Assembly (NCBI GenBank): GCA_023484045.1
Contig: JAMDAA010000036.1
Coordinates: 1 to 41,452 of the forward strand
Reading direction: 5' to 3'
From: Patescibacteria group bacterium
GTDB lineage: Bacteria; Patescibacteriota; Microgenomatia; Levybacterales; UBA12049
DNA: 41,452 bases
Position numbers and translations under genes: made by a program. Under the pieces are notes generated by a model, which saw only the letters and a list, made by a program, of their open reading frames with translations, had not been told where the DNA came from and did no database searches. Positions 2,288-28,729 of the stretch are shown in pieces; the first letter of the stretch is position 1, and each line of letters opens with the position of its first letter.

Positions 2288-4042
2288 ATGCCAATCGCAA
2301 AAAAACTGATAATTTCTGAAGTAAAAAAAATCTTAACAGAAATGGGGTTTAATGGTCTAGAACCCATAGTGGAAATTCCCCAAGATTTATCTCACGGCGA
2401 TTACACATCGAATATTGCAATGACAATATTCTCAAAATCAACCCTTCGACTTCGCTCAGGGCAAGATTTCAAATCACCGATGGAATTGGCCGAAAAAATA
2501 GTTCAAAAACTATTAGCCTCGCAAGGCGACGCCCTGCGAGGCAAGATTTTTAAAATAGAAGCTGGAAAACCGGGTTTCATAAATTTTTGGCTTTCGAATG
2601 AGTACTTATTTAATAGTTTGATACAGAGTGATAGACAAAGAGAGAAAGGAGATAAGTCGCTTGACGGTAAGAAGATTCTGGTTGAGTATGCGCACCCCAA
2701 TACGCATAAAGAATTCCATATTGGACATTTAAGAACAGCTGTAATTGGTGAGTCGATATCAAGACTTATTGAATACGAAGCAGGAAAAGTTCTCAGAACT
2801 AATTATCAAGGAGACATTGGGCCACATGTGGCCAAAGCCATCTTTGGCCTAATTCATAATTCAGAATTCATAATTCAGAATGCGGAGCAAAGACCGCTTG
2901 GGGAACGGATTAAATTTCTTGCCCAGGGTTATGCGAAGGGGAATAAGGCGTATGAGGAAAACGACGAAGCCAGAAAAGAAATTCAGGAAATAAATGTCAG
3001 TTTGTATAAGGGAGAGGAAAAATATAAAGAAATCTGGGAAACAACTAGACAATGGAGTTTAGAATATTTTGAAACAATTTATAAAAAGCTCGGTATAAAA
3101 TTTGACAGATTGTTTTTTGAAAGCGAAACATTCCAAAGGGGGAAAGAGATTGTGTTGAAATATTTGGATGGAATCTTCAAAAAAGACCAAGGGGCGATCA
3201 TTTTCAAAGGGGAAGACTATGGACTTCATAACCGCGTTTTTGTCACCTCAGAAGGCTATGCAACATATGAGGGAAAGGAAATGGCCTTGGCCTTTTTGGA
3301 ATATGAAGCATTTCCTTTTGATCTTGCTCTTCACGTCGTCGCGCAAGAACAAGAAGGATATTTTAAAGTCGTTTTTAAGGCGTTGGAATTGATCGACCCC
3401 AAGTTCAAAAATTCCGAGAAACATCTGTCTTACGGGATGGTCGAGCTAAAGACCGGAAAAATGTCGTCAAGGAGCGGAAATATTATAAGCGCTTTTTGGC
3501 TTATCAACGAAGCGAAAAAAAAGATAAAAAAAGAGTTCACAGAAATCGGTGAAGAAGTGGCCGAAAAGGTGGCAGTAGGTGCGGTTAAATACTCGATGTT
3601 AAGATTTGCGAAGAATTCGAATATCAGTTTTTCTTTTGATGAGTCAATAACACTTCAGGGAAATTCTGGGCCATATCTCCAATACACGTACGCTCGCACA
3701 CAAAGTGTGCTAGCTAAAACTCAAAACTCAAAACTAAAAGATCAAACTCAAAACTTAAAGATCAAAACTAAGGACCTAAATCTCGAGGCGGAGGAGGCGG
3801 CGGTTTTGCGTCAGTTAATCCAGTTTGAAGAGGTAGTCAATAGTGCGGCAGAAAACTTTGCCCCAAACTTAATTTGTAATTATATTTTCGATTTAGCCCA
3901 AAAATTTAATCTTTTTTATCAAAAATACCCGATTTTAAAAAGCGAAAAAGAAGAATTCAGACTTATGCTTAATGAAGCAGTCGGAGACAGGCTCAAAGAA
4001 GGCTTAAATCTTCTAGGAATAGAGGCACTCGAAAGAATGTAG
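2288..4042 (+). CDS. argS: Arginine--tRNA ligase
   Basis: HGDYTSN N-domain, GFINF, PNTHKEFHIGHLR (HIGH), KMSSRSG, GPYLQYTYAR and C-terminal LGIEALERM. Confidence 0.98.
   Translation: MPIAKKLIISEVKKILTEMGFNGLEPIVEIPQDLSHGDYTSNIAMTIFSKSTLRLRSGQDFKSPMELAEKIVQKLLASQGDALRGKIFKIEAGKPGFINFWLSNEYLFNSLIQSDRQREKGDKSLDGKKILVEYAHPNTHKEFHIGHLRTAVIGESISRLIEYEAGKVLRTNYQGDIGPHVAKAIFGLIHNSEFIIQNAEQRPLGERIKFLAQGYAKGNKAYEENDEARKEIQEINVSLYKGEEKYKEIWETTRQWSLEYFETIYKKLGIKFDRLFFESETFQRGKEIVLKYLDGIFKKDQGAIIFKGEDYGLHNRVFVTSEGYATYEGKEMALAFLEYEAFPFDLALHVVAQEQEGYFKVVFKALELIDPKFKNSEKHLSYGMVELKTGKMSSRSGNIISAFWLINEAKKKIKKEFTEIGEEVAEKVAVGAVKYSMLRFAKNSNISFSFDESITLQGNSGPYLQYTYARTQSVLAKTQNSKLKDQTQNLKIKTKDLNLEAEEAAVLRQLIQFEEVVNSAAENFAPNLICNYIFDLAQKFNLFYQKYPILKSEKEEFRLMLNEAVGDRLKEGLNLLGIEALERM
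2442..2461. repeat. Small hairpin element in frame within argS
   Basis: CCCT-TCGACTTCGCTC-AGGG; the same TTCGAC..GCTCAG core recurs at 22108-22157. Confidence 0.7.
2516..2542. repeat. Palindromic element in frame within argS
   Basis: GCCTCGCA-A-GGC-GAC-GCC-C-TGCGAGGC; encodes ASQGDALRG. Confidence 0.75.
2851..2881. repeat. 7-nt tandem array inside argS
   Basis: AATTCAT AATTCAG AATTCAT AATTCAG AAT. Confidence 0.85.
3716..3784. repeat. Degenerate 7-nt tandem array inside argS
   Basis: AAAACTC AAAACTC AAAACTA AAAGATC AAACTC AAAACTT AAAGATC AAAACTA AGGACCT AAATCTC. Confidence 0.8.
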
Positions 4043-9774: not shown

Positions 9775-12357
9775 TTAAGGGGTTGGGTTTGGAGCGGCGG
9801 CTTCGGCAGGACAGTTAACCAAAGCTTTATTTATTTCATCCGGAGTTTTGTTTTCGGTCGTCATTTGCTCTCTTTTTACTTTACATTCGTTTATACTTGG
9901 GAAATAACAATGGGTCTTTGGTTCTGTTCCTGGCACAAAATACTCCTCAGACATTTTTGGACATCTGGCACAAGGCAAAAGTCCGTTTACAGCACAGATT
10001 TTAACCTTTACCATACCGGTCGGGGTATCAAAACTACCGCCTGATTTGCCCTTGAGAACATTTGTCATAATTTCATTCCAAATCGGTGCCGCACCAGTAA
10101 TTCCGGAGGTTAAAGTTGGGTTCATCGGTGAATTATTATTGTTTCCTACCCACGTTGCGACTAAAAAATCCGGAGTGTACCCGATCGTCCAGTTGTCTCT
10201 TTTCTCGTTTGTCGTCCCCGTTTTTACGGCCACTTTGTGTTCGGGGATTTCGAGTTTCGCGTAAGGGCCAAAGGCGGGCATTCTCGCGTCGTTATCGGAA
10301 AGGATGTTCGTTAGTTGATAAGCTGTGGTTTCCGGAATTACTCTCTCCCCGTCGGCCGCAGAGGCCTGCGCTTCCATTCCCATTTTTGCGAGCAAGCTTT
10401 TGTTCACTGTTTTTTCGTTTTCTTCGATCGTTTTACCATTTCGGTCTGTTATCTTTTCGACAGCTTTAAGATCCCGTCTTACTCCCATGTTCGGCAATAC
10501 CCCGTAGGCGGTTGCGAGTTCTGTCATTTTAACATCGCCCGCCCCAAGAGTTAGCGAAAGACCGTAATTTTTGAGATTTTTCCACGATTCGATTCCCATT
10601 TTCCGACCCAACTCGACCATTTTGTCCGGTCCGTACGTGTTTAAAACTTTAACAGCGGGAATATTCAGAGACATCGCGAGCGCTTGTTTTAAAGTGACAG
10701 GACCGCGGAATTTGCCGTCATAATTTACCGGCGCGTATGTTTCCCACGCATTACTATAAGAAACAGGGGAATCTACGATTATCGTTCCGGGAGTAAATTT
10801 ACCCCAGGATAGGGCGTAGGCATAATTTACCATTTTAATCGAAGATCCGGGTTGACGTCTTGCGACAGTTACGTTTACCTGACCTTCGTGTTTATCGTCA
10901 AAATAATCCCGAGATCCTACCATCGCCAGAATGCGTCCGTTTCTTGGTTCTGTGACTAAAGACGCGGCGTTAGAAATCCAATACATTTGTTCGACTTCTT
11001 CAACGTTTTCTTTAACAATCTTCTCAGCCATAAGTTGAATCGGTAAATCAAGAGTAGTTCGAATTGTTAAGCCGCCTTCTTGTACGAGCTTTTTGCCGTA
11101 TTTATGTTCTAATTCATCGATTACCCAGAAAACAAAATGGGGAGCCTGGATTTGGTTGTCGATAGAATAGAATACTAATTCTTTTTTATAAGCATCGTCG
11201 GCTTGTTTTTTAGTAATAAATTTCTTTTCGACCATCGCATCCAAAACCCTTTTTTGGTTTTTCTTATAAACGTCTCTTTTAGTCAGATACGGAGAATTTT
11301 TGGTCGGTGAGGAAGGAAGACTTGCGAGTAAACTTGCCTCTGCCAGATCGAGTTCAGACGTTTTTTTACCAAAATATTTTCTGGAAGCTGCCTCGATTCC
11401 ATACGCTGTTCCGCCGTAGGGCGTACTGTTTAAATACATTTCGAGTATTTTGTCTTTGGGATAAATTATATCGACCAGAAGCGCAAGATATGCTTCTTTA
11501 ATTTTTCGCTCCATGACCCGTCTGTTATCCCTTAAAAGATTTACCTTGACGAGCTGCTGAGTTATTGTCGAGCCTCCCTGTACGGGTTTTTTCTCGAGAT
11601 TATTTATAAAAGCCCTTGCTAAACCTTTTATGGAAATGCCGCGGTGATTATAAAAGTCTTTGTCTTCATAGGCGATCGTCGCTTGCTTTACAACGTCCGG
11701 AATTTTGTTTAGAGAAACAGGAATGCGATTTACCTCTCCGTTATAGATAACGTATAAAATCTTTCCGTTTTTATCTAAGACTTGACTGGACTGGGGGAGC
11801 GGTTTGTTCATAAGATCGTATGGACTCGGTAGATTTCTTAAAAAAAGCGCATAAAAGGCACCAACTGTTACAAACAATATAAATGTGGCACCGGCTACGG
11901 CATAAGTATATCTTTTTGGAATCGCGATTCTGGTTTCCCGAATTGTTTTTCCATAATTTTTGATACATTTTATTAATGCCTTCTGATTTTTATTAGCGGA
12001 TTCGAACAAATTAGCGTAAAAAACTTCGACGGGAGCTTTTTCATTATGTTTTGCTTTTAATCCAGATCCTTCTAGGAGCTTATTCAGTAGCAATACTAGA
12101 GTTAAACCGAATATAATCGTCGACCAACCGATAAGTTGAATAATATAAACAAAATGGAAAAAAGTAATTTTTATTCTCTTAAAGCAGTAGCTTAAAAGTT
12201 TTAAGTAGCCTAGGAAAAATTTAATCGTTAGCCAACCTACGCTCGTGAAAAATATGGCAAAAACTAAAACGACATTCTTTGATATATTTAATATCTTTTT
12301 ACTAATGTACTTTCCAAAATCATGAACTAATAAATCCAACTCGTTTTCTTTTGACAT
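9775..12357 (-). CDS. Class A penicillin-binding protein (transglycosylase/transpeptidase, PBP1A family)
   Basis: EDKDFYNHRG, GGSTITQQL, RKIKE, YLN; transpeptidase motifs SSIK, SLN and KTG. Confidence 0.96.
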   Translation of the reverse strand: MSKENELDLLVHDFGKYISKKILNISKNVVLVFAIFFTSVGWLTIKFFLGYLKLLSYCFKRIKITFFHFVYIIQLIGWSTIIFGLTLVLLLNKLLEGSGLKAKHNEKAPVEVFYANLFESANKNQKALIKCIKNYGKTIRETRIAIPKRYTYAVAGATFILFVTVGAFYALFLRNLPSPYDLMNKPLPQSSQVLDKNGKILYVIYNGEVNRIPVSLNKIPDVVKQATIAYEDKDFYNHRGISIKGLARAFINNLEKKPVQGGSTITQQLVKVNLLRDNRRVMERKIKEAYLALLVDIIYPKDKILEMYLNSTPYGGTAYGIEAASRKYFGKKTSELDLAEASLLASLPSSPTKNSPYLTKRDVYKKNQKRVLDAMVEKKFITKKQADDAYKKELVFYSIDNQIQAPHFVFWVIDELEHKYGKKLVQEGGLTIRTTLDLPIQLMAEKIVKENVEEVEQMYWISNAASLVTEPRNGRILAMVGSRDYFDDKHEGQVNVTVARRQPGSSIKMVNYAYALSWGKFTPGTIIVDSPVSYSNAWETYAPVNYDGKFRGPVTLKQALAMSLNIPAVKVLNTYGPDKMVELGRKMGIESWKNLKNYGLSLTLGAGDVKMTELATAYGVLPNMGVRRDLKAVEKITDRNGKTIEENEKTVNKSLLAKMGMEAQASAADGERVIPETTAYQLTNILSDNDARMPAFGPYAKLEIPEHKVAVKTGTTNEKRDNWTIGYTPDFLVATWVGNNNNSPMNPTLTSGITGAAPIWNEIMTNVLKGKSGGSFDTPTGMVKVKICAVNGLLPCARCPKMSEEYFVPGTEPKTHCYFPSINECKVKREQMTTENKTPDEINKALVNCPAEAAAPNPTP

Positions 12358-15776: not shown

Positions 15777-16631
15777 ATGAAGGATAGTTTTATTTCGGCT
15801 ATCAGAAAAAATTGGAAAAAGAAGAAAACGATGGTTTGTGTTGGCTTAGACAGCGAATACAGTAAAATTCCTCAATTTCTTAAAAATAAATATTTTTCTT
15901 GCGAAAAAACGATTTTGGAGTTCAATAAAGCGATTATTAAGAATACTTTTGATCTAGTTTGTTGCTATAAGATTCAGTATGCTTTTTATGGCGCTTTGGG
16001 AGAAGAAGGGATTTCGGCTTTGAGAAAAACGATCGAATATATTCACGAAAGACATCCTGAAATTCCGGTTATTTTAGACGCAAAAAGAAACGATATCGGA
16101 AATACCTCCGAAGCTTACGCGGTTGAAGTTTTCGACAATTTCGGAGCAGACGCTGCAACGATCAATCCCTATTTAGGAAAGGATTCCTGCGAACCGTTTT
16201 TAGAGAGAAAAGACAAAGGCGTAATTCTACTTTGCAGAACTTCAAATCTCGGAGCAGGGGATTTTCAGGATTTAATTACAAATTTCAACGGTAAGAAAAT
16301 GCCTTTGTATCAAGTTGTCGCGACAAAAATTAGCCGGGATTGGAATAGAAACGGAAACTGCTGTTTAGTGATGGGCGCGACATATCCAAAACAGCTCAAA
16401 ATAGTAAGAAATATAACAGGCGATATGCCGTTTTTGGTTCCGGGGATCGGGTCGCAAGGAGGGTACTTGGAAAACACGATAAAAAATGGTATAGATAGTA
16501 AAGGAGCCGGTCTAATTATCAATTCTTCAAGAGGAATTATTTTTGCGTCAAACGATAAAGATTTTGCCCGGAAAGCGAGGGAAGAAGCGATAAAACTCAA
16601 GAGAGATATTGACAAATATAGATATAATTAA
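15777..16631 (+). CDS. pyrF: Orotidine-5'-phosphate decarboxylase (subfamily 2)
   Basis: VCVGLD, ILDAKRNDIGNT, NPYLG, RTSN, LVPGIGSQGG, INSSRGI. Confidence 0.96.
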   Translation: MKDSFISAIRKNWKKKKTMVCVGLDSEYSKIPQFLKNKYFSCEKTILEFNKAIIKNTFDLVCCYKIQYAFYGALGEEGISALRKTIEYIHERHPEIPVILDAKRNDIGNTSEAYAVEVFDNFGADAATINPYLGKDSCEPFLERKDKGVILLCRTSNLGAGDFQDLITNFNGKKMPLYQVVATKISRDWNRNGNCCLVMGATYPKQLKIVRNITGDMPFLVPGIGSQGGYLENTIKNGIDSKGAGLIINSSRGIIFASNDKDFARKAREEAIKLKRDIDKYRYN

Positions 16632-16634
16632 TAT

Positions 16635-16766
16635 GGGTCCTGTCAGAGGTTTCCTTCCCGCCTCCGCTAAAGCTACGGCGGGCAGGCCCGCCAGCGGTGC
16701 TTCGCCCCTCGAAGTCCGGCTCTGCCGGACGAAGTGGGGTCGGGAGCCCTTCCACCTCTGCCACCC
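16635..16766. repeat. GC-rich composite hairpin element between pyrF and pyrE
   Basis: Outer stems GGGT/ACCC, CAGAGGT/ACCTCTG and TCCCG/CGGGA enclose two inner palindromes (16657-16686 and 16704-16740). Confidence 0.75.
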
Positions 16767-16785
16767 GTTACATTTATATAAAGAT

Positions 16786-17385
16786 ATGGAAAAGAAAAAC
16801 CTAGTTTTAAATCTCTTTAAATGCGGGTGCATTAAGTTTGGAGACTTTACTTTAAAATCCGGGATGAAATCGCCGATCTATATTGACCTTCGGGTTTTAG
16901 TTTCCCACCCCGATGTTTTAAAACAAGCGGCCCGCGCTTATATTTCGATTTTAAAAACATTAAAATTTAAACGCATCGCCGGAATCCCATACGCAGCACT
17001 TCCGATCGCGAGCGCGATTAGCCTTTTATCTTCGCGTCCGATGATTTACACCCGCAAAGAAGTAAAAGATTACGGGACAAAAAAGGCGATCGAAGGAATG
17101 TTTAAAAAAGGAGAGAAAATTGTGGTGATCGACGATATGGTTACAACCGGCGCGTCAAAATTCGAGGCTATTAATCCACTCGAAATGGCCGGGCTTAAAA
17201 TTGAAGACGTTGTCGTGTTAATCGATCGGGAACAAGGAGCAAGAAAGCAGCTGGAGAAAAAAGGATATCGCCTGCATGCGGTTTTAGGCTTAACGGGAAC
17301 ATTGGACATCTTTTTTAAAGAGAGAAAAATTACGAAGAAAAAAATGGAAGAAACCCTAAAATTCTTAGCCGCGAATAGGGTTTAA
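16786..17385 (+). CDS. pyrE: Orotate phosphoribosyltransferase
   Basis: FGDFTLKSGMKSPIYIDLR, RKEVKDYG and PRPP motif VVIDDMVTTGAS; true start most likely ATG 16786. Confidence 0.95.
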   Translation: MEKKNLVLNLFKCGCIKFGDFTLKSGMKSPIYIDLRVLVSHPDVLKQAARAYISILKTLKFKRIAGIPYAALPIASAISLLSSRPMIYTRKEVKDYGTKKAIEGMFKKGEKIVVIDDMVTTGASKFEAINPLEMAGLKIEDVVVLIDREQGARKQLEKKGYRLHAVLGLTGTLDIFFKERKITKKKMEETLKFLAANRV

Positions 17386-17401
17386 AACTTTTATTTCTAG
17401 G

Positions 17402-17644
17402 TCAGGCGACTCCTAGCTTGGTTACTTCTTTTCTTGATAGATCAGGCTCTGTAGTTGCTTCTTTTATAGGCGTGAATCCCTTTTTTGTCATCGTACCCAA
17501 TTCGTCATTGACCATGGCTAGTCCACAAAGCTCAGACTCTATGGCATCCTGCTGATAATTTGGGGTGTAATCATTCCAGAAACAATCATTATAATTTAAA
17601 AATAAACATCCGGTGCAAAAGGTTTTTTCTTCGTTTTCTGGCAT
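17402..17644 (-). CDS. Small Cys-rich hypothetical protein
   Basis: 80 aa, CxxC...C...C pattern (FCTGC, DCF, LCG); downstream of tRNA-Pro on the same strand. Confidence 0.55.
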   Translation of the reverse strand: MPENEEKTFCTGCLFLNYNDCFWNDYTPNYQQDAIESELCGLAMVNDELGTMTKKGFTPIKEATTEPDLSRKEVTKLGVA

Positions 17645-17722
17645 ACATTTACATTTATTAATATGGATTCTATTCTAAGTTGTTGCTTCTGTCAAATTGG
17701 TCCGCCTGTAACCGGGTATTTG

Positions 17723-17794
17723 TCGGGGTGCTGGGAATTGAACCCAGTGGCTCTCGGTCCCGAACCGAGCGTGATACCGGTTCACTACACCCCG
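17723..17794 (-). tRNA. tRNA-Pro (CGG)
   Basis: Cloverleaf: acceptor CGGGGTG/CACCCCG, D stem GTGA/TCAC, anticodon arm CTCGG-TTCGGGA-CCGAG, T arm CTGGG-TTCAATT-CCCAG, discriminator A; CCA not encoded. Confidence 0.95.
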
Positions 17795-17834
17795 AACGTT
17801 TTCTATTTTAACCTTCTTAGTGTTAAAATACAAA

Positions 17835-17864
17835 TAAGTAGCTTAAGTTTCTTAAGTTACTTAA
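17835..17864. repeat. 9-nt tandem array upstream of the four-helix-bundle gene
   Basis: TAAGTAGCT TAAGTTTCT TAAGTTACT TAA. Confidence 0.85.
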
Positions 17865-17870
17865 AAGAAG

Positions 17871-18443
17871 ATGTTGCCCAAATATAAATACCTTTTAACC
17901 TACAGGTATTCAGAGATTGTCCATGATTTGACAGTAGAATTTACTAAAAGATTTATTTTGAGCAACTTTAGCAGCTTAGGAGAAAAACCTGACTTTAGGA
18001 CTGCTGATCAGATGAATCAAGCTGCCAGATCTGGTAAGCAAAATATTATTGAGGGAGTTGGGCAAAGCAGGACATCTAAAAAAGGGGAAATAAAGCTTTT
18101 AGGAGTTGCAAATGCTTCTCTAGAAGAATTACTCGCTGATTTTGAAGATTTCTTAAGACAAAGAAAGCTTAAAATATTTCCAAAGACACACTATAAAATA
18201 CAAAACTTTAGAAAAATTGCCTTTCGGTTGACAGCATTAAGTAACTTAAGTCACCTAGGTAACTTAAAAGAAAAGCCAAATTTGCCAAAAAGTCCGGAAG
18301 AAGCCGGAAATTTTCTCCTTACACTTTGTCATCAGGTGACTTATTTGCTTTCGAAACAAATAAAAAGTCTTGAGGAAAAATTTATAAAAGACGGTGGATA
18401 TTCAGAAAACTTGTTTAAAAAGAGACTAAATAGTAAAATATAA
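17871..18443 (+). CDS. Four-helix-bundle protein (23S rRNA IVP/bAvd-like) with suffix domain
   Basis: RTADQMNQAARSGKQNIIEG, ASLEELLADFEDFLRQR, and suffix YLLSKQIKSLEEKFIKDGGYSENL (TIGR04258-like, from memory). Confidence 0.9.
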   Translation: MLPKYKYLLTYRYSEIVHDLTVEFTKRFILSNFSSLGEKPDFRTADQMNQAARSGKQNIIEGVGQSRTSKKGEIKLLGVANASLEELLADFEDFLRQRKLKIFPKTHYKIQNFRKIAFRLTALSNLSHLGNLKEKPNLPKSPEEAGNFLLTLCHQVTYLLSKQIKSLEEKFIKDGGYSENLFKKRLNSKI

Positions 18444-18471
18444 GTCGCCTAAGTTACTTATGTGGCTTAAG
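18441..18471. repeat. 9-nt tandem array between the four-helix-bundle stop and tRNA-Arg
   Basis: TAAGTCGCC TAAGTTACT TATGTGGCT TAAG; the first TAA is the stop codon. Confidence 0.8.
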
Positions 18472-18475
18472 ATTT

Positions 18476-18547
18476 GTCCCCGTAGTTCAACGGATAGAAC
18501 AGACCCGTCCTAAGGGTCCAATGGAGGTCCGACTCCTCTCGGGGACG
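18476..18547 (+). tRNA. tRNA-Arg (CCT)
   Basis: Acceptor GTCCCCG/CGGGGAC, D stem GTTC/GAAC, anticodon arm GACCC-GTCCTAA-GGGTC, T arm GGAGG-TCCGACT-CCTCT, discriminator G. Confidence 0.93.
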
Positions 18548-18566
18548 CTAATGCTTCTCTCGCCAA

Positions 18567-18605
18567 TAAGTAACTTAAGTCACTTAGGAAACTTAAGTTA
18601 CTTAA
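18567..18605. repeat. 9-nt tandem array downstream of tRNA-Arg
   Basis: TAAGTAACT TAAGTCACT TAGGAAACT TAAGTTACT TAA; 28/30 identical to 18238-18267 inside the four-helix-bundle gene. Confidence 0.88.
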
Positions 18606-18608
18606 ATT

Positions 18609-19343
18609 ATGAGCAAGTCTGAAATTATTCGTTTTTTAATTCTCCGTTCGATTGGGAATTTTTTGCTGCTTTTTGCGATTTTTGGGGTTGTCGCAACTTT
18701 TGGCCCTACACTTTATTACGAAGCAAGGTTTCGCATTATTCAGGCGAGGGGAGTGACTTATAAAGTTGAAGATCCTGCTGTTGATACAGGAGTTATAGTT
18801 AGCGGAGAAGGACTGCGAAAGGTTTTGCAAAGGCAAAACGAGACTCAAGTCCCAGTGGGCTTTGCAGAACTTCTTCGTGGTCCAAAAGAGCATGTTTTGA
18901 TACCAAAAGATACACAATTTAGTATTTTGATACCAAAGATTGGTGCGAGTTCAAAAGTGTTTCCAAACGTAGATGCATCCAACGAAAAAGAATTTTTGCC
19001 AGTTTTACAAGAAGGAGTTGCCCATGCCAAGGGTACGGTTTTTCCTGGGAATTTGGGCAATATTTATCTTTTTGCCCATTCAACCGATAATTTTTGGGAT
19101 GTTGGGCGATACAATGCTGTTTTTTATCTCTTAAAAGACTTGTCAAAAGGTGATGATATTATAGTTTTCTTTCAGGACAAAAGACATAATTATGTAGTTA
19201 CGGATTCGATAATAGCTGATCCAAAAGACGTTTCTTATATAGTAAATAGCCAGCAGACAGGAGAAGAAAAACTTATTTTACAAACCTGCTGGCCACCCGG
19301 TACAACATGGAAACGCTTGATAGTTATCGCACGTCCTAAATAG
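18609..19343 (+). CDS. Sortase family protein
   Basis: N-terminal TM, GVAH, GNIYLFAHS (His), LILQTCWP (Cys), KRLIVIA (Arg). Confidence 0.93.
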   Translation: MSKSEIIRFLILRSIGNFLLLFAIFGVVATFGPTLYYEARFRIIQARGVTYKVEDPAVDTGVIVSGEGLRKVLQRQNETQVPVGFAELLRGPKEHVLIPKDTQFSILIPKIGASSKVFPNVDASNEKEFLPVLQEGVAHAKGTVFPGNLGNIYLFAHSTDNFWDVGRYNAVFYLLKDLSKGDDIIVFFQDKRHNYVVTDSIIADPKDVSYIVNSQQTGEEKLILQTCWPPGTTWKRLIVIARPK

Positions 19344-19354
19344 AGATTAGAATA

Positions 19355-19428
19355 AATCAATTGAATCGCGCGGTAGGGCGAGCCTCGCCTTCGGCGGGCC
19401 GCCCGGAACTACCTGGAAGAGATTGATT
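19355..19428. repeat. GC-rich intergenic multi-stem hairpin
   Basis: Nested stems AATCAAT/ATTGATT, GGTAG/CTACC, GGCG/CGCC and apical CGCC-TTC-GGCG, between convergent genes. Confidence 0.6.
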
Positions 19429-19448
19429 GTGATCGCAAGACCCAAATA

Positions 19449-19523
19449 AATTTTTAATTACTAAATTTCAAAAATTAAAACATTTAGATTTGATTAAAAA
19501 TTTAAAATTTCGAATTTAAAATT
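19449..19523. repeat. AT-rich 7-nt arrays without a gene
   Basis: AATTTTT AATTACT AAATTTC ... AAATTTA AAATTTC GAATTTA AAATT. Confidence 0.55.
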
Positions 19524-20730
19524 ATTTTAGTCCCACCGTATAAAGACTTGGGGACAGATCGGGATTTCCGAGGTCTGTTAAAATGACTAACTTTGATCCA
19601 TTGGGCCATGGAAAGATATAGCTATCCAAAAACGGTCCAGCGTAGACGGTTGTAATATTAGAATTGTCATATTCAAAGATATTGATTTTTTTATCCTCGA
19701 CAAATATCAGGTGTTTTGAATCAGGAAACCAAGCCAGACTCGGAAGCCAATTTGAAGTTTTCTTGGTGTTGCCGGCATCGATTCGGAAGTTCTTATCCTC
19801 TTTAATATCATAAACGTATGTATTGCTCTTTGTTAGAGTTCTCTCTTCTATTTCTGAATCTGCGCCGATAATCCTCGGATTAATCACGATCGGCAAAGTT
19901 GCGGATTGGGACGCTTCGTAAAGAACCTTTGTGTCATCGGGCGACCATGCGATCACCCTAAAATTTTCTGAAATCATTTGCCGTAAGTTAGATTTTAGTC
20001 CGATAAGTCTGGATTTTTCTTTATCTTGTTTGTCTTTTTCCCATTGATCTTGATATGTGCTAAGGGTCGCGGTTATGTCTTTTGGGCTTTGGTTAAATCC
20101 GTCGGCTTGAAGTAAATAAATCGTAGGCTGCCTATTTTCTCCCGAGATCGCCGCGATTATTTGTTGTCCATCGGGCGACCACGAAAGTTTTGCCTTTGAA
20201 AATGTGTCGGTTGTGTCGTCAGCGATTTGTGTCGACCCACTCTGGAGTGTAATAATCGGTCTCGTGCTCATATCGAGAACATATGCTCCATTTTTTCGCG
20301 GGGACTGAGAACTTAATGTATAAGTGATTCGGGTTTGGGATGGATCAAGACTTGGGTTATCGATCCCGTTTAAACTTATTCCTTCGAGTTTTGGGTTGGT
20401 TGGGAAAAGTGTGGCTTCGGCCTTAGATACAACCTCTTTTTGTACTTTGATTTTTTTCTCCCACGGAAAATAACCTTCTTTATAGATTTTAATCGCGTAT
20501 GTGCCCGGCCTAAGATTAATTGTATTATCTGTAGCCGTTGTCAAGTGGCCGTCGACAAAAACTTGGGCGCCATTAGGGGAGCTAGTCGCGACGAGAAGAC
20601 CTGTTTCGGAAAATCCGATTTTTCCCTCCCCGAATCCGAAACGATACCCTTTACCATACAAGATTAACATTATTGTGCTGACGGTCAGGAATAGAAAAAT
20701 TACAATCGGAATTAAAATTTGTTTTTTCAC
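19522..20730 (-). CDS. PEGA-domain protein with TolB-like beta-propeller repeats
   Basis: N-terminal TM, PEGA motif (SSPNGAQVFVDG...LRPGTYAIKIYKEGYFPW), repeated WSPDG/WSPDD/WFPDS/WPNG. Confidence 0.88.
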   Translation of the reverse strand: MKKQILIPIVIFLFLTVSTIMLILYGKGYRFGFGEGKIGFSETGLLVATSSPNGAQVFVDGHLTTATDNTINLRPGTYAIKIYKEGYFPWEKKIKVQKEVVSKAEATLFPTNPKLEGISLNGIDNPSLDPSQTRITYTLSSQSPRKNGAYVLDMSTRPIITLQSGSTQIADDTTDTFSKAKLSWSPDGQQIIAAISGENRQPTIYLLQADGFNQSPKDITATLSTYQDQWEKDKQDKEKSRLIGLKSNLRQMISENFRVIAWSPDDTKVLYEASQSATLPIVINPRIIGADSEIEERTLTKSNTYVYDIKEDKNFRIDAGNTKKTSNWLPSLAWFPDSKHLIFVEDKKINIFEYDNSNITTVYAGPFLDSYIFPWPNGSKLVILTDLGNPDLSPSLYTVGLK

Positions 20731-28281: not shown

Positions 28282-28686
28282 ATGTCAAATCAAAATTCAA
28301 ATTTCAAAAATCAAAGTCTAGATAAAAAATCAAAGCCAGAAGTTCGGTATCGAGCATTTTATTTGTCGATTGATATCATTAAGTTTCTTGATAAATTAGA
28401 ATATAAACAATCAGTCAAAATAATATCCGATCAGTTGATTCGATGTGTTACCTCAATCGGGGCAAATATTGTAGAAGCAAAATCATCTTCTTCTAAAAGA
28501 GAATTTCTAAATTACTTTCAAATAGCTCTAAAATCCGCAAATGAAGCAAAATATTGGCTTTTTATGTTAAAAGAATTATTCCCCAAGGAAAAAGAAGAAA
28601 TAGATATTTTTCTAAAAGAAGTGGATGAGATTTCAAGAATTATAGGAACAAGTATATTAACGATGAAAGGTAAAAGAAATCTTTAA
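28282..28686 (+). CDS. Four-helix-bundle protein (23S rRNA IVP family)
   Basis: DQLIRCVTSIGANIVEA, SKREF and IALKSANEAKYWL (TIGR02436/PF05635-like, from memory); first 12 codons are a 7-nt array. Confidence 0.93.
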   Translation: MSNQNSNFKNQSLDKKSKPEVRYRAFYLSIDIIKFLDKLEYKQSVKIISDQLIRCVTSIGANIVEAKSSSSKREFLNYFQIALKSANEAKYWLFMLKELFPKEKEEIDIFLKEVDEISRIIGTSILTMKGKRNL

Positions 28687-28699
28687 GCTTTAAACTAGG

Positions 28700-28729
28700 A
28701 TTTGATTTTTGCTTTTTGATTTTTAATTT
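28700..28729. repeat. T-rich 7-nt array closing the four-helix-bundle cassette
   Basis: ATTTGA TTTTTGC TTTTTGA TTTTTAA TTT; roughly complementary to 28282-28319 and 17/18 identical to 22156-22173. Confidence 0.75.

Follow-up and report, generated by a model that had tools for sequence, protein, structure and literature searches.

The window, by which we mean the whole stretch of 41,452 nucleotides analyzed, contains a 190-aa gene that lies between two divergent tRNA genes and is surrounded and interrupted by five arrays of a nine-nucleotide unit. The unit is YTARGTNAC (also written in the phase C-Y-T-A-R-G-T-N-A), with six fixed letters and three free ones (Y, R and N). The gene neighbours are tRNAs, pyrE and a sortase. 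The features are the following:

17722..17794, minus strand: tRNA-Pro(CGG), a native host gene divergent from tRNA-Arg (Rfam/tRNA call)
17821..17829, plus strand: TG-n-TAAAAT extended -10-like box, read from the sequence; putative tRNA-Arg promoter
17834..17864, no strand assigned: upstream array of three nonamer units; predicted hairpin of -13.1 kcal/mol
17871..18443, plus strand: 190-aa four-helix-bundle gene with a suffix domain (TIGR02436 and TIGR04258); pI 9.8
17958..17981, no strand assigned: site A, a weak, worn in-frame array of two units (pattern scan)
18237..18267, no strand assigned: site B, an in-frame array reading LSNLSHLGNL (pattern scan, codon analysis)
18440..18471, no strand assigned: stop-codon array, ending 4 nt before tRNA-Arg
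18476..18548, plus strand: tRNA-Arg(CCT), native host gene and landing site, outside the module
18566..18605, no strand assigned: post-tRNA array of four units, between tRNA-Arg and the sortase ATG
18609..19343, plus strand: sortase-family gene, a native neighbour used for finding empty loci
28282..28729, plus strand: comparator, a TIGR02436 gene of the short type (28282-28686) and its inverted arms of period 7 (28290-28315 and 28701-28729)

With one mismatch allowed, the 14-letter pattern YTARGTNRCYTARG has 23 matches in the window, 22 of which fall inside 17834-18606; in shuffled sequences it has a mean of 1.36 and a maximum of 8. The earlier note, made on the sequence alone, had placed arrays before the gene, in frame inside it, at its stop codon and after tRNA-Arg, with a weaker in-frame one near 17958. 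All five were located, far above the shuffled level, the weak one being worn and two units long. The post-tRNA array stops 3 nt before the sortase ATG and behaves as a solo array at a start codon. Beyond the locus, the nonamer word has only one further hit (2 units) in the whole 900-kb assembly, and the arrays of this genome are not spread beyond the locus. The sole word match elsewhere in the window is a worn nonamer-like run in a penicillin-binding protein gene (12184-12214).

The units were also said to be nearly palindromic, so that arrays could pair with each other, and in-silico folding agrees: the arrays fold on themselves and with one another at -12 to -36 kcal/mol. The strongest predicted duplex joins the upstream and post-tRNA arrays and would enclose the gene and the tRNA. 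The upstream and stop-codon arrays pair at -19.5 kcal/mol in silico, and other pairings win in the folded transcript. The tRNA fold is predicted intact in every transcript fold, and only the two tRNAs exceed the Rfam gathering score over 16500-20000. The 28/30 identity reported between the arrays at 18238 and 18567 is exact, yet it is only mildly unusual: when 69 in-gene arrays of other genomes were matched against the post-tRNA array, 6 reached 28/30 or better. As proof of copying from the gene this identity found no support, given that at least 28 matching positions occur in 3 of 50 same-locus pairs and in 70 of 2750 different-locus pairs.

The gene passes the cut-offs of TIGR04258 (54.9 bits, cut-off 40) and TIGR02436 (33 bits, cut-off 24), both relatives of PF05635, and is a member on both counts; the family entry gives no function. 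PF05635 itself scores 31.4 bits, just below its cut-off of 33.8, and no other family is hit. No match was returned by phmmer against the PDB or by Foldseek at E<=0.001, and PADLOC gave no defence-gene hit. A search for evidence of expression listed no RNA sample containing the locus. The predicted model has a mean pLDDT of 91 and is almost all helix; site A forms the loop after helix 1, which has low pLDDT and a length that varies among homologues. In structure comparison of the model, the matches are Xcc0516 (2gsc; Z 14.9, rmsd 1.6, 112 aligned), BT_0352 (2rld; Z 13.0) and Avd (Z 11.2, rmsd 2.7, 114 aligned), of which only the top one stands clearly apart because unrelated helical bundles begin at Z 10.8. 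A profile search reaches Xcc0516 at E 0.0011, and the motifs Q..A..S...NI.EG and SL.EL are common to both proteins. The proposed kinship with the 23S rRNA IVS protein and Avd was borne out in that the modelled fold is S23p/Avd-like by structure comparison.

The protein has 3649 homologues at E<=0.001, and comparison with five of them indicates purifying selection (pN 0.16-0.18 against pS 0.69-0.84). Two of the sequences retrieved, G202 and L040, carry an identical gene. The S23p/TIGR02436 family is large, its entry carries no function, and periodic short repeats near starts are puzzling in their own right (PMC4679880). In a literature search that covered mainly openly accessible papers, we found no account of the repeat word, its constraint or the tRNA-leader site, no paper for TIGR02436, and nothing relevant for TIGR04258 or for nonamer repeats in Patescibacteria.

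In order to find the site without the gene, 29 related loci were chosen via the downstream sortase, and the tRNA was looked for within the 1.5 kb fetched. A tRNA-Arg(CCT) is present in 25 of the 29 loci, with tRNA-Pro called beside it in 15, and in none does the gene lie between the tRNA and its promoter-like box; one locus carries a 44%-identical paralogue beyond tRNA-Pro. By this comparison tRNA-Arg(CCT) is a native host gene and the landing site, not part of the module. Empty loci of the same layout have a Pro-Arg gap of 46-176 nt, or of about 770 nt with another gene inside. A similar -10-like box precedes tRNA-Arg in empty loci (L006, L030, L334) and, in most occupied loci, the upstream array or the gene. 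The TG-n-TAAAAT box, which is absent from the list of a sigma-70 scan, is likely the tRNA-Arg promoter used by the gene. Given that the upstream array starts 5 nt after this box, which also precedes tRNA-Arg in empty loci, the gene most likely sits in the pre-tRNA-Arg leader. Leaders of tRNAs are released by RNase P.

After partial, broken and duplicate homologues were dropped, 79 distinct full-length ones were retained from 105 loci. Directly before tRNA-Arg(CCT) lie 24 of them, all in one word clade of 56, while the remaining 32 genes of that clade are not called at this tRNA; four homologues of other clades precede tRNA-Ala. The state of the site varies among close relatives. The gene is present in G086, and in five congeners it was not detected at this position. 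A second genus has three occupied genomes (G353, G355 and G361), two empty ones (G209 and G321) and one with an unrelated 212-aa gene (G234); in G271 and G194, 15 nt of array, set directly between box and tRNA, are all that remains, and such a remnant would be the expected product of deletion between two arrays. Hence, the comparison of empty and occupied loci proposed in the note gave a site that is occupied, empty, scarred or held by a passenger, and it is this pattern, together with the comparison of fixed and free letters given below, that is new here. The pre-tRNA-Arg leader is thereby seen as a landing site shared across Microgenomates.

The note's further suggestion, that the module brackets a rare-codon tRNA and perhaps controls it, was not upheld. 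Of the 23 occupied loci long enough to judge (a 24th was too short), 2 have a post-tRNA array, so this array was rejected as a conserved part of the module. AGG accounts for 14.9% of 7814 Arg codons and is the second commonest Arg codon. Given that the tRNA is native, that AGG is not rare and that 28/30 identity is only mildly unusual, the bracket is a local coincidence of a leader gene with an array of the solo type at the start codon that follows. The locus also differs from an integrative element that targets tRNAs, for which an integrase and a duplicated tRNA end are expected: it has one ORF, no recombinase family hit and no third tRNA-like match at E<=1, and the gene lies upstream of an intact tRNA. 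Contig comparison returned homologues of other organisms; among the matches listed, all of them contigs, there was no empty allele of this strain and no excision or transposition joint.

Other arrangements were observed around this gap. In L291, a partial homologue lies in the same Pro/Arg gap, oriented towards tRNA-Pro. Another passenger, of about 210 aa, occupies the tRNA-Pro/tRNA-Arg gap of several genomes (L002, L018, L310:4090-4728); it has a weak N-terminal HTH hit and an LYW(A/G)EG motif, possibly LAGLIDADG-like. In L033, L038, L040, L045 and L056, one or both halves (5', 3') of a second tRNA-Arg-like sequence flank an intact tRNA-Arg, which sits inside the anticodon loop of this older copy; in L033, the breaks carry short inverted repeats. 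In L092 (G032 C49), what is left of the gene's 3' end is followed by the 5' half of a tRNA-Arg, the break lying in the anticodon loop.

One of five 9-nt words could be assigned to 75 of the 79 distinct homologues, with word classes that were defined after viewing the sequences and labels that kin share. Two trees were built, a quick tree with SH-aLRT support and a FastTree with the array columns masked. The masked tree requires 7 changes of word, against at least 20 in 500 shuffles, yet the FastTree support of the word clade fell to 0.39 under this masking. Lineages place different words in the same two loops and flanks, and hence encode different, unrelated peptides there. These results support the idea of a protein with a cognate periodic repeat, in that the word tracks the clade and, as presented below, locks codons inside the gene.

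The note had further assigned period 9 to the subfamily with the suffix domain and period 7 to the short one. The former stands for 75 of 79 genes. Among 22 short-type loci from five genomes, scored with a detector run without a control, period 7 is best on at least one side in 19, and period 8 is found on both sides in two, so the correlation of period with clade was found with a period-8 exception. This genome has seven short-type and two long genes, and 73 period-7 tandem rows. The second long-type gene (L079, G000 C23:3920-4435) has another in-frame word (TAAGAC/TAGGTC type) and no clear flanking arrays, which makes this paralogue a specificity control built into the genome. Short-type genes with period-8 arms were observed in L374 (G000 C21:17333-17700) and L375, and several solo period-8 arrays in the same genome. 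In L067:3001-4275, a homologue runs into a pilin-like ORF via its stop-side array, giving a 424-aa fusion.

Codon usage inside the gene shows that the word is constrained as nucleic acid. Site B, defined by columns of the protein alignment, is 12 residues long in 49 of the 56 clade genes. Its Asn codons are AAC in 93 of 102 cases, compared with 105 of 315 elsewhere, and its Ser codons are AGY in 129 of 142, compared with 157 of 452 elsewhere; Asp is GAC in 49 of 51 and His is CAC in 20 of 21. The median pS is 0.49 at site B and 0.84 in the rest of the gene, where other synonymous sites are near saturation. A function of the LSNLSHLGNL peptide itself was rejected, since other lineages encode other peptides there and the codons are locked. 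Between G119 and G161, congeners with about 80% identical DNA, 8 of the 17 arrays in the fetched G119 regions have a covered orthologue, and 6 of these are ungapped. In these six, differences are found at 5 of 138 fixed, 22 of 69 free and 49 of 301 flank positions, in a comparison whose query side was picked for good units and whose flanks include coding sequence. Likewise, units within an array vary at Y, R and N and keep the six letters, and 100 of 110 arrays near genes have 3-4 units.

Three strand-bias tests gave no support to control at the RNA level. No excess of G.U-compatible changes was found on the sense strand; flanking hairpins are more stable on the sense strand in 17 and on the antisense strand in 22 of 40 cases; and the arm duplexes of short genes are more stable on the sense strand in 8 of 20. 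Selection for a sense-strand RNA hairpin thus left no signal. Y and R vary almost independently within a unit, and hairpin covariation is weak, with p 0.016 when units are shuffled across arrays and 0.13 when they are shuffled within arrays. The lack of strand preference favours recognition of letters, in dsDNA or in a hairpin of either strand, over selection for an mRNA stem. RNA binding may nevertheless be compatible with it; in paired nonamer arrays, one base of each unit would stay unpaired.

Among 301 genomes of the class, the nonamer pattern occurs in 49 and a homologue in 76. Arrays are present in 38 of the 76 genomes with a homologue and in 11 of the 225 without, a table that counts kin as independent and is partly circular because in-gene arrays count. 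When a metagenome scan started from the arrays, the gene was present in 18 of the 124 loci listed, and in 3 of the 38 with at least 1 kb on both sides. According to simple ORF calls, 95 solo arrays divide into 41 in ORFs, 42 at co-directional, 7 at convergent and 2 at divergent junctions, and 3 unplaced; background junctions are co-directional, convergent and divergent in the ratio 232:34:31. Nine of the 42 co-directional arrays end exactly in YTATG, and 5 more do so one worn unit later. Solo arrays are strand-symmetric (C1 30, G4 29).

Their positions change among relatives. Of the 11 congeners (out of 19) in which one stop-start junction could be read, two carry a 9-nt array there, four carry an insert of the 7-nt type or another kind, and five have 1-8 nt. 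At three junctions, a 9-nt array in one of G119 and G161 corresponds to a 7-nt or REP-like repeat in the other; at one in-frame site, the two differ by exactly three units (1 versus 4; 27 nt). About ten clean arrays occur in G234, where no cognate gene was found, so arrays can persist after the gene or be there before it. At one junction, an array seemed to have overwritten host codons; this reading was dropped, since those codons are identical in a congener that lacks the 9-nt array. A nonamer array lies in the spacer just past the 16S rRNA 3' end at L313:746 and L402:1502, kept in two congeners. Nonamer runs of 12-16 units in inverted blocks occur in L107, L111 and L122, which are short contigs without the gene.

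In the quick tree, the nearest neighbours of the window's gene are Daviesbacteria genes (SH-aLRT 93), to which it is 72-73% identical, compared with 39-41% for the sortases. With a host of the same family, the gene is 72% and the sortase 66% identical. This suggests the gene moved between lineages, judging by sequence identity; alternatively, one old insertion followed by many losses, with protein identity flattened by constraint, could give the same picture. No target-site duplication was readable in the pairs compared, because the closest pairs are 70-85% identical. A TA duplication, which would fit arrays that start in TAA/TAG and end in TATG, was set aside given that no pair is close enough to read it. 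Phage as a vehicle was also set aside: a single-sequence query found no homologue in viral contigs, and none of the 9 viral arrays among the matches listed is accompanied by the gene. The locus has no transposase, recombinase or reverse transcriptase (RT) belonging to the element, and an RT (PF00078) was not found in this genome, G000, which is 92% complete, nor in 3 of 4 other array-rich genomes.

The reading we prefer, with a confidence evenly balanced between acceptance and doubt, is a selfish gene-plus-repeat element, in which an Avd-fold protein binds its word, and gene and arrays act like RAYTs and REPINs. The tRNA promoter would drive the gene, whose transcript would belong to the leader of the pre-tRNA, and the gene product would form an Avd-like ring that reads about four units, more probably in double-stranded form or in a hairpin of either strand than in mRNA only. 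The gene would move between lineages, possibly via recombination at the conserved tRNA flanks, and would be lost by deletion between arrays. The arrays would serve as the element's handles, with solo copies spreading into tolerant loops and junctions. The occupied, empty and scarred sites, the clade-linked word, the letter constraint, the solo arrays and the fold likely speak for such an element. Against it, most perfect arrays have no gene nearby, no array-writing enzyme was found at the locus, and the fixed letters kept in solo arrays are at least as compatible with sites useful to the host as with dead copies. Such retention would be expected if the element kept refreshing the arrays, and likewise if the host used them.

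Since solo arrays keep their fixed letters, two host-serving explanations retain some weight. One is translational control, in which the protein would bind arrays in mRNA, limit its own synthesis and tune initiation at host genes with solo arrays at their start codons. The conserved letters, the solo arrays that end in YTATG (9/42, with 5 more one worn unit on) and the post-tRNA array 3 nt before the sortase ATG are what this explanation expects; moreover, heptamer runs upstream of starts were proposed as regulator sites in Beggiatoaceae (PMC4679880), and Avd binds RNA (10.1101/2023.10.23.563531). We nonetheless regard it as somewhat unlikely, given that the sense strand has no advantage (17 versus 22 of 40; 8/20) and no G.U excess, that 41 of 95 solo arrays are inside ORFs and one lies just after a 16S rRNA 3' end, and that the same junction exchanges unrelated repeats or is empty in congeners. 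The other explanation is a domesticated DNA-binding system, in which the arrays would be dyad sites of a chromosome-binding protein useful to the host, kept by selection and not by selfish spread. The dyad-symmetric word, the near independence of Y and R and the strand symmetry of solo arrays suit it, as does a basic protein (pI 9.8) under purifying selection; yet the patchy distribution (76 of 301 genomes), the presence of several lineages with different words in one genome and the lack of a fixed position of solo arrays among congeners make it quite unlikely.

Two further explanations fare worse. Arrays could be a neutral by-product of slippage and hairpin-driven template switching from chance seeds, hitch-hiking with a transferred gene, and the orthologous site with 1 unit against 4 in a congener (a 27-nt difference) is of the kind expected. 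This is very improbable, however, considering that units differ at Y, R and N and keep six letters, that 100 of 110 arrays have 3-4 units, that fixed letters change less than flanks and that the word tracks the clade. Control of tRNA-Arg(CCT), with arrays enclosing the pre-tRNA and the protein gating its processing, could call on the -36 kcal/mol duplex of the upstream and post-tRNA arrays, the strongest in silico, on the fact that all 24 pre-Arg genes are in this word clade, and on the complementarity of the anticodon loop TCCTAAG with a CTTAGGA unit variant. It is hardly credible in view of a post-tRNA array in 2 of 23 loci, 32 of 56 clade genes not called at this tRNA, an AGG codon that is not rare, a tRNA fold intact in all folds and a gap that also takes other passenger genes.

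We also consider it unlikely that the helix-bundle protein itself mobilises periodic-repeat elements, as a widespread class, with a ring that reads about four units of its word, writes or refreshes arrays and moves the gene, using no DDE, HUH or serine/tyrosine recombinase and no RT that belongs to it. If it were, the S23p/IVS family would gain a function, and lineage-specific 7-, 8- and 9-nt repeats in many bacteria would be explained. Given a precise candidate ligand (six fixed and three free letters, about four units) and the paralogue as a control, the function of the family is directly testable.

Short fixed-word repeat runs comparable to these arrays also include the cyanobacterial STRR. 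Runs of the TAACTGA heptamer occur in Beggiatoaceae, Cyanobacteria and Bacteroidetes just upstream of start codons (PMC4679880). They are alike in that short fixed-word runs end before starts and overlap stops, and unlike the nonamer arrays in having period 7 and no palindrome. The main text of PMC4679880 does not contain 'four helix', '23S' or 'S23', so the repeats are not linked to this protein family there. The 23S rRNA IVS of Coxiella has tandem heptamers upstream of its S23p ORF and a terminal stem that is cleaved by RNase III (PMC4990558). ORF-bearing IVSs of this type share the S23p-type bundle, as the fold matches 2gsc and 2rld indicate. They lie in 23S rRNA, whereas the present gene lies between tRNA-Pro and tRNA-Arg and has period 9, a self-complementary word, and in-frame and solo copies.

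The layout resembles that of REP/REPIN-RAYT systems (PMC3116915), where a gene is flanked by its own short palindromic repeats with lineage-specific words and solo hairpin copies; here too, the gene has its cognate repeats on both sides, and they differ according to the gene's lineage. However, the HUH (Y1) tyrosine transposase of those systems is replaced by an all-helical bundle with PF05635 hits only, the repeats form periodic tandem runs, and 41 of 95 solo copies are inside ORFs. Solo copies are dispersed in relatives, not in this genome. In Avd pentamers, crevices between the protomers take up flipped-out bases of an RNA stem-loop and so grip it (10.1101/2023.10.23.563531). The Avd of diversity-generating retroelements (DGRs) is alike in fold and basic charge and sets a precedent for a pentamer that grips a stem-loop, yet the locus has no adjacent RT and no other DGR parts, and the protein has an extra suffix domain.

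Other repeats were observed in the window. Two in-frame 7-nt arrays lie within argS (2850-2881 and 3716-3769), a gene that also takes 9-nt arrays in other genomes (L104, L106, L310), and GC-rich short inverted repeats of the CCCGCC...GGCGGG type are present at gene junctions (16660-16750 and 19370-19400).
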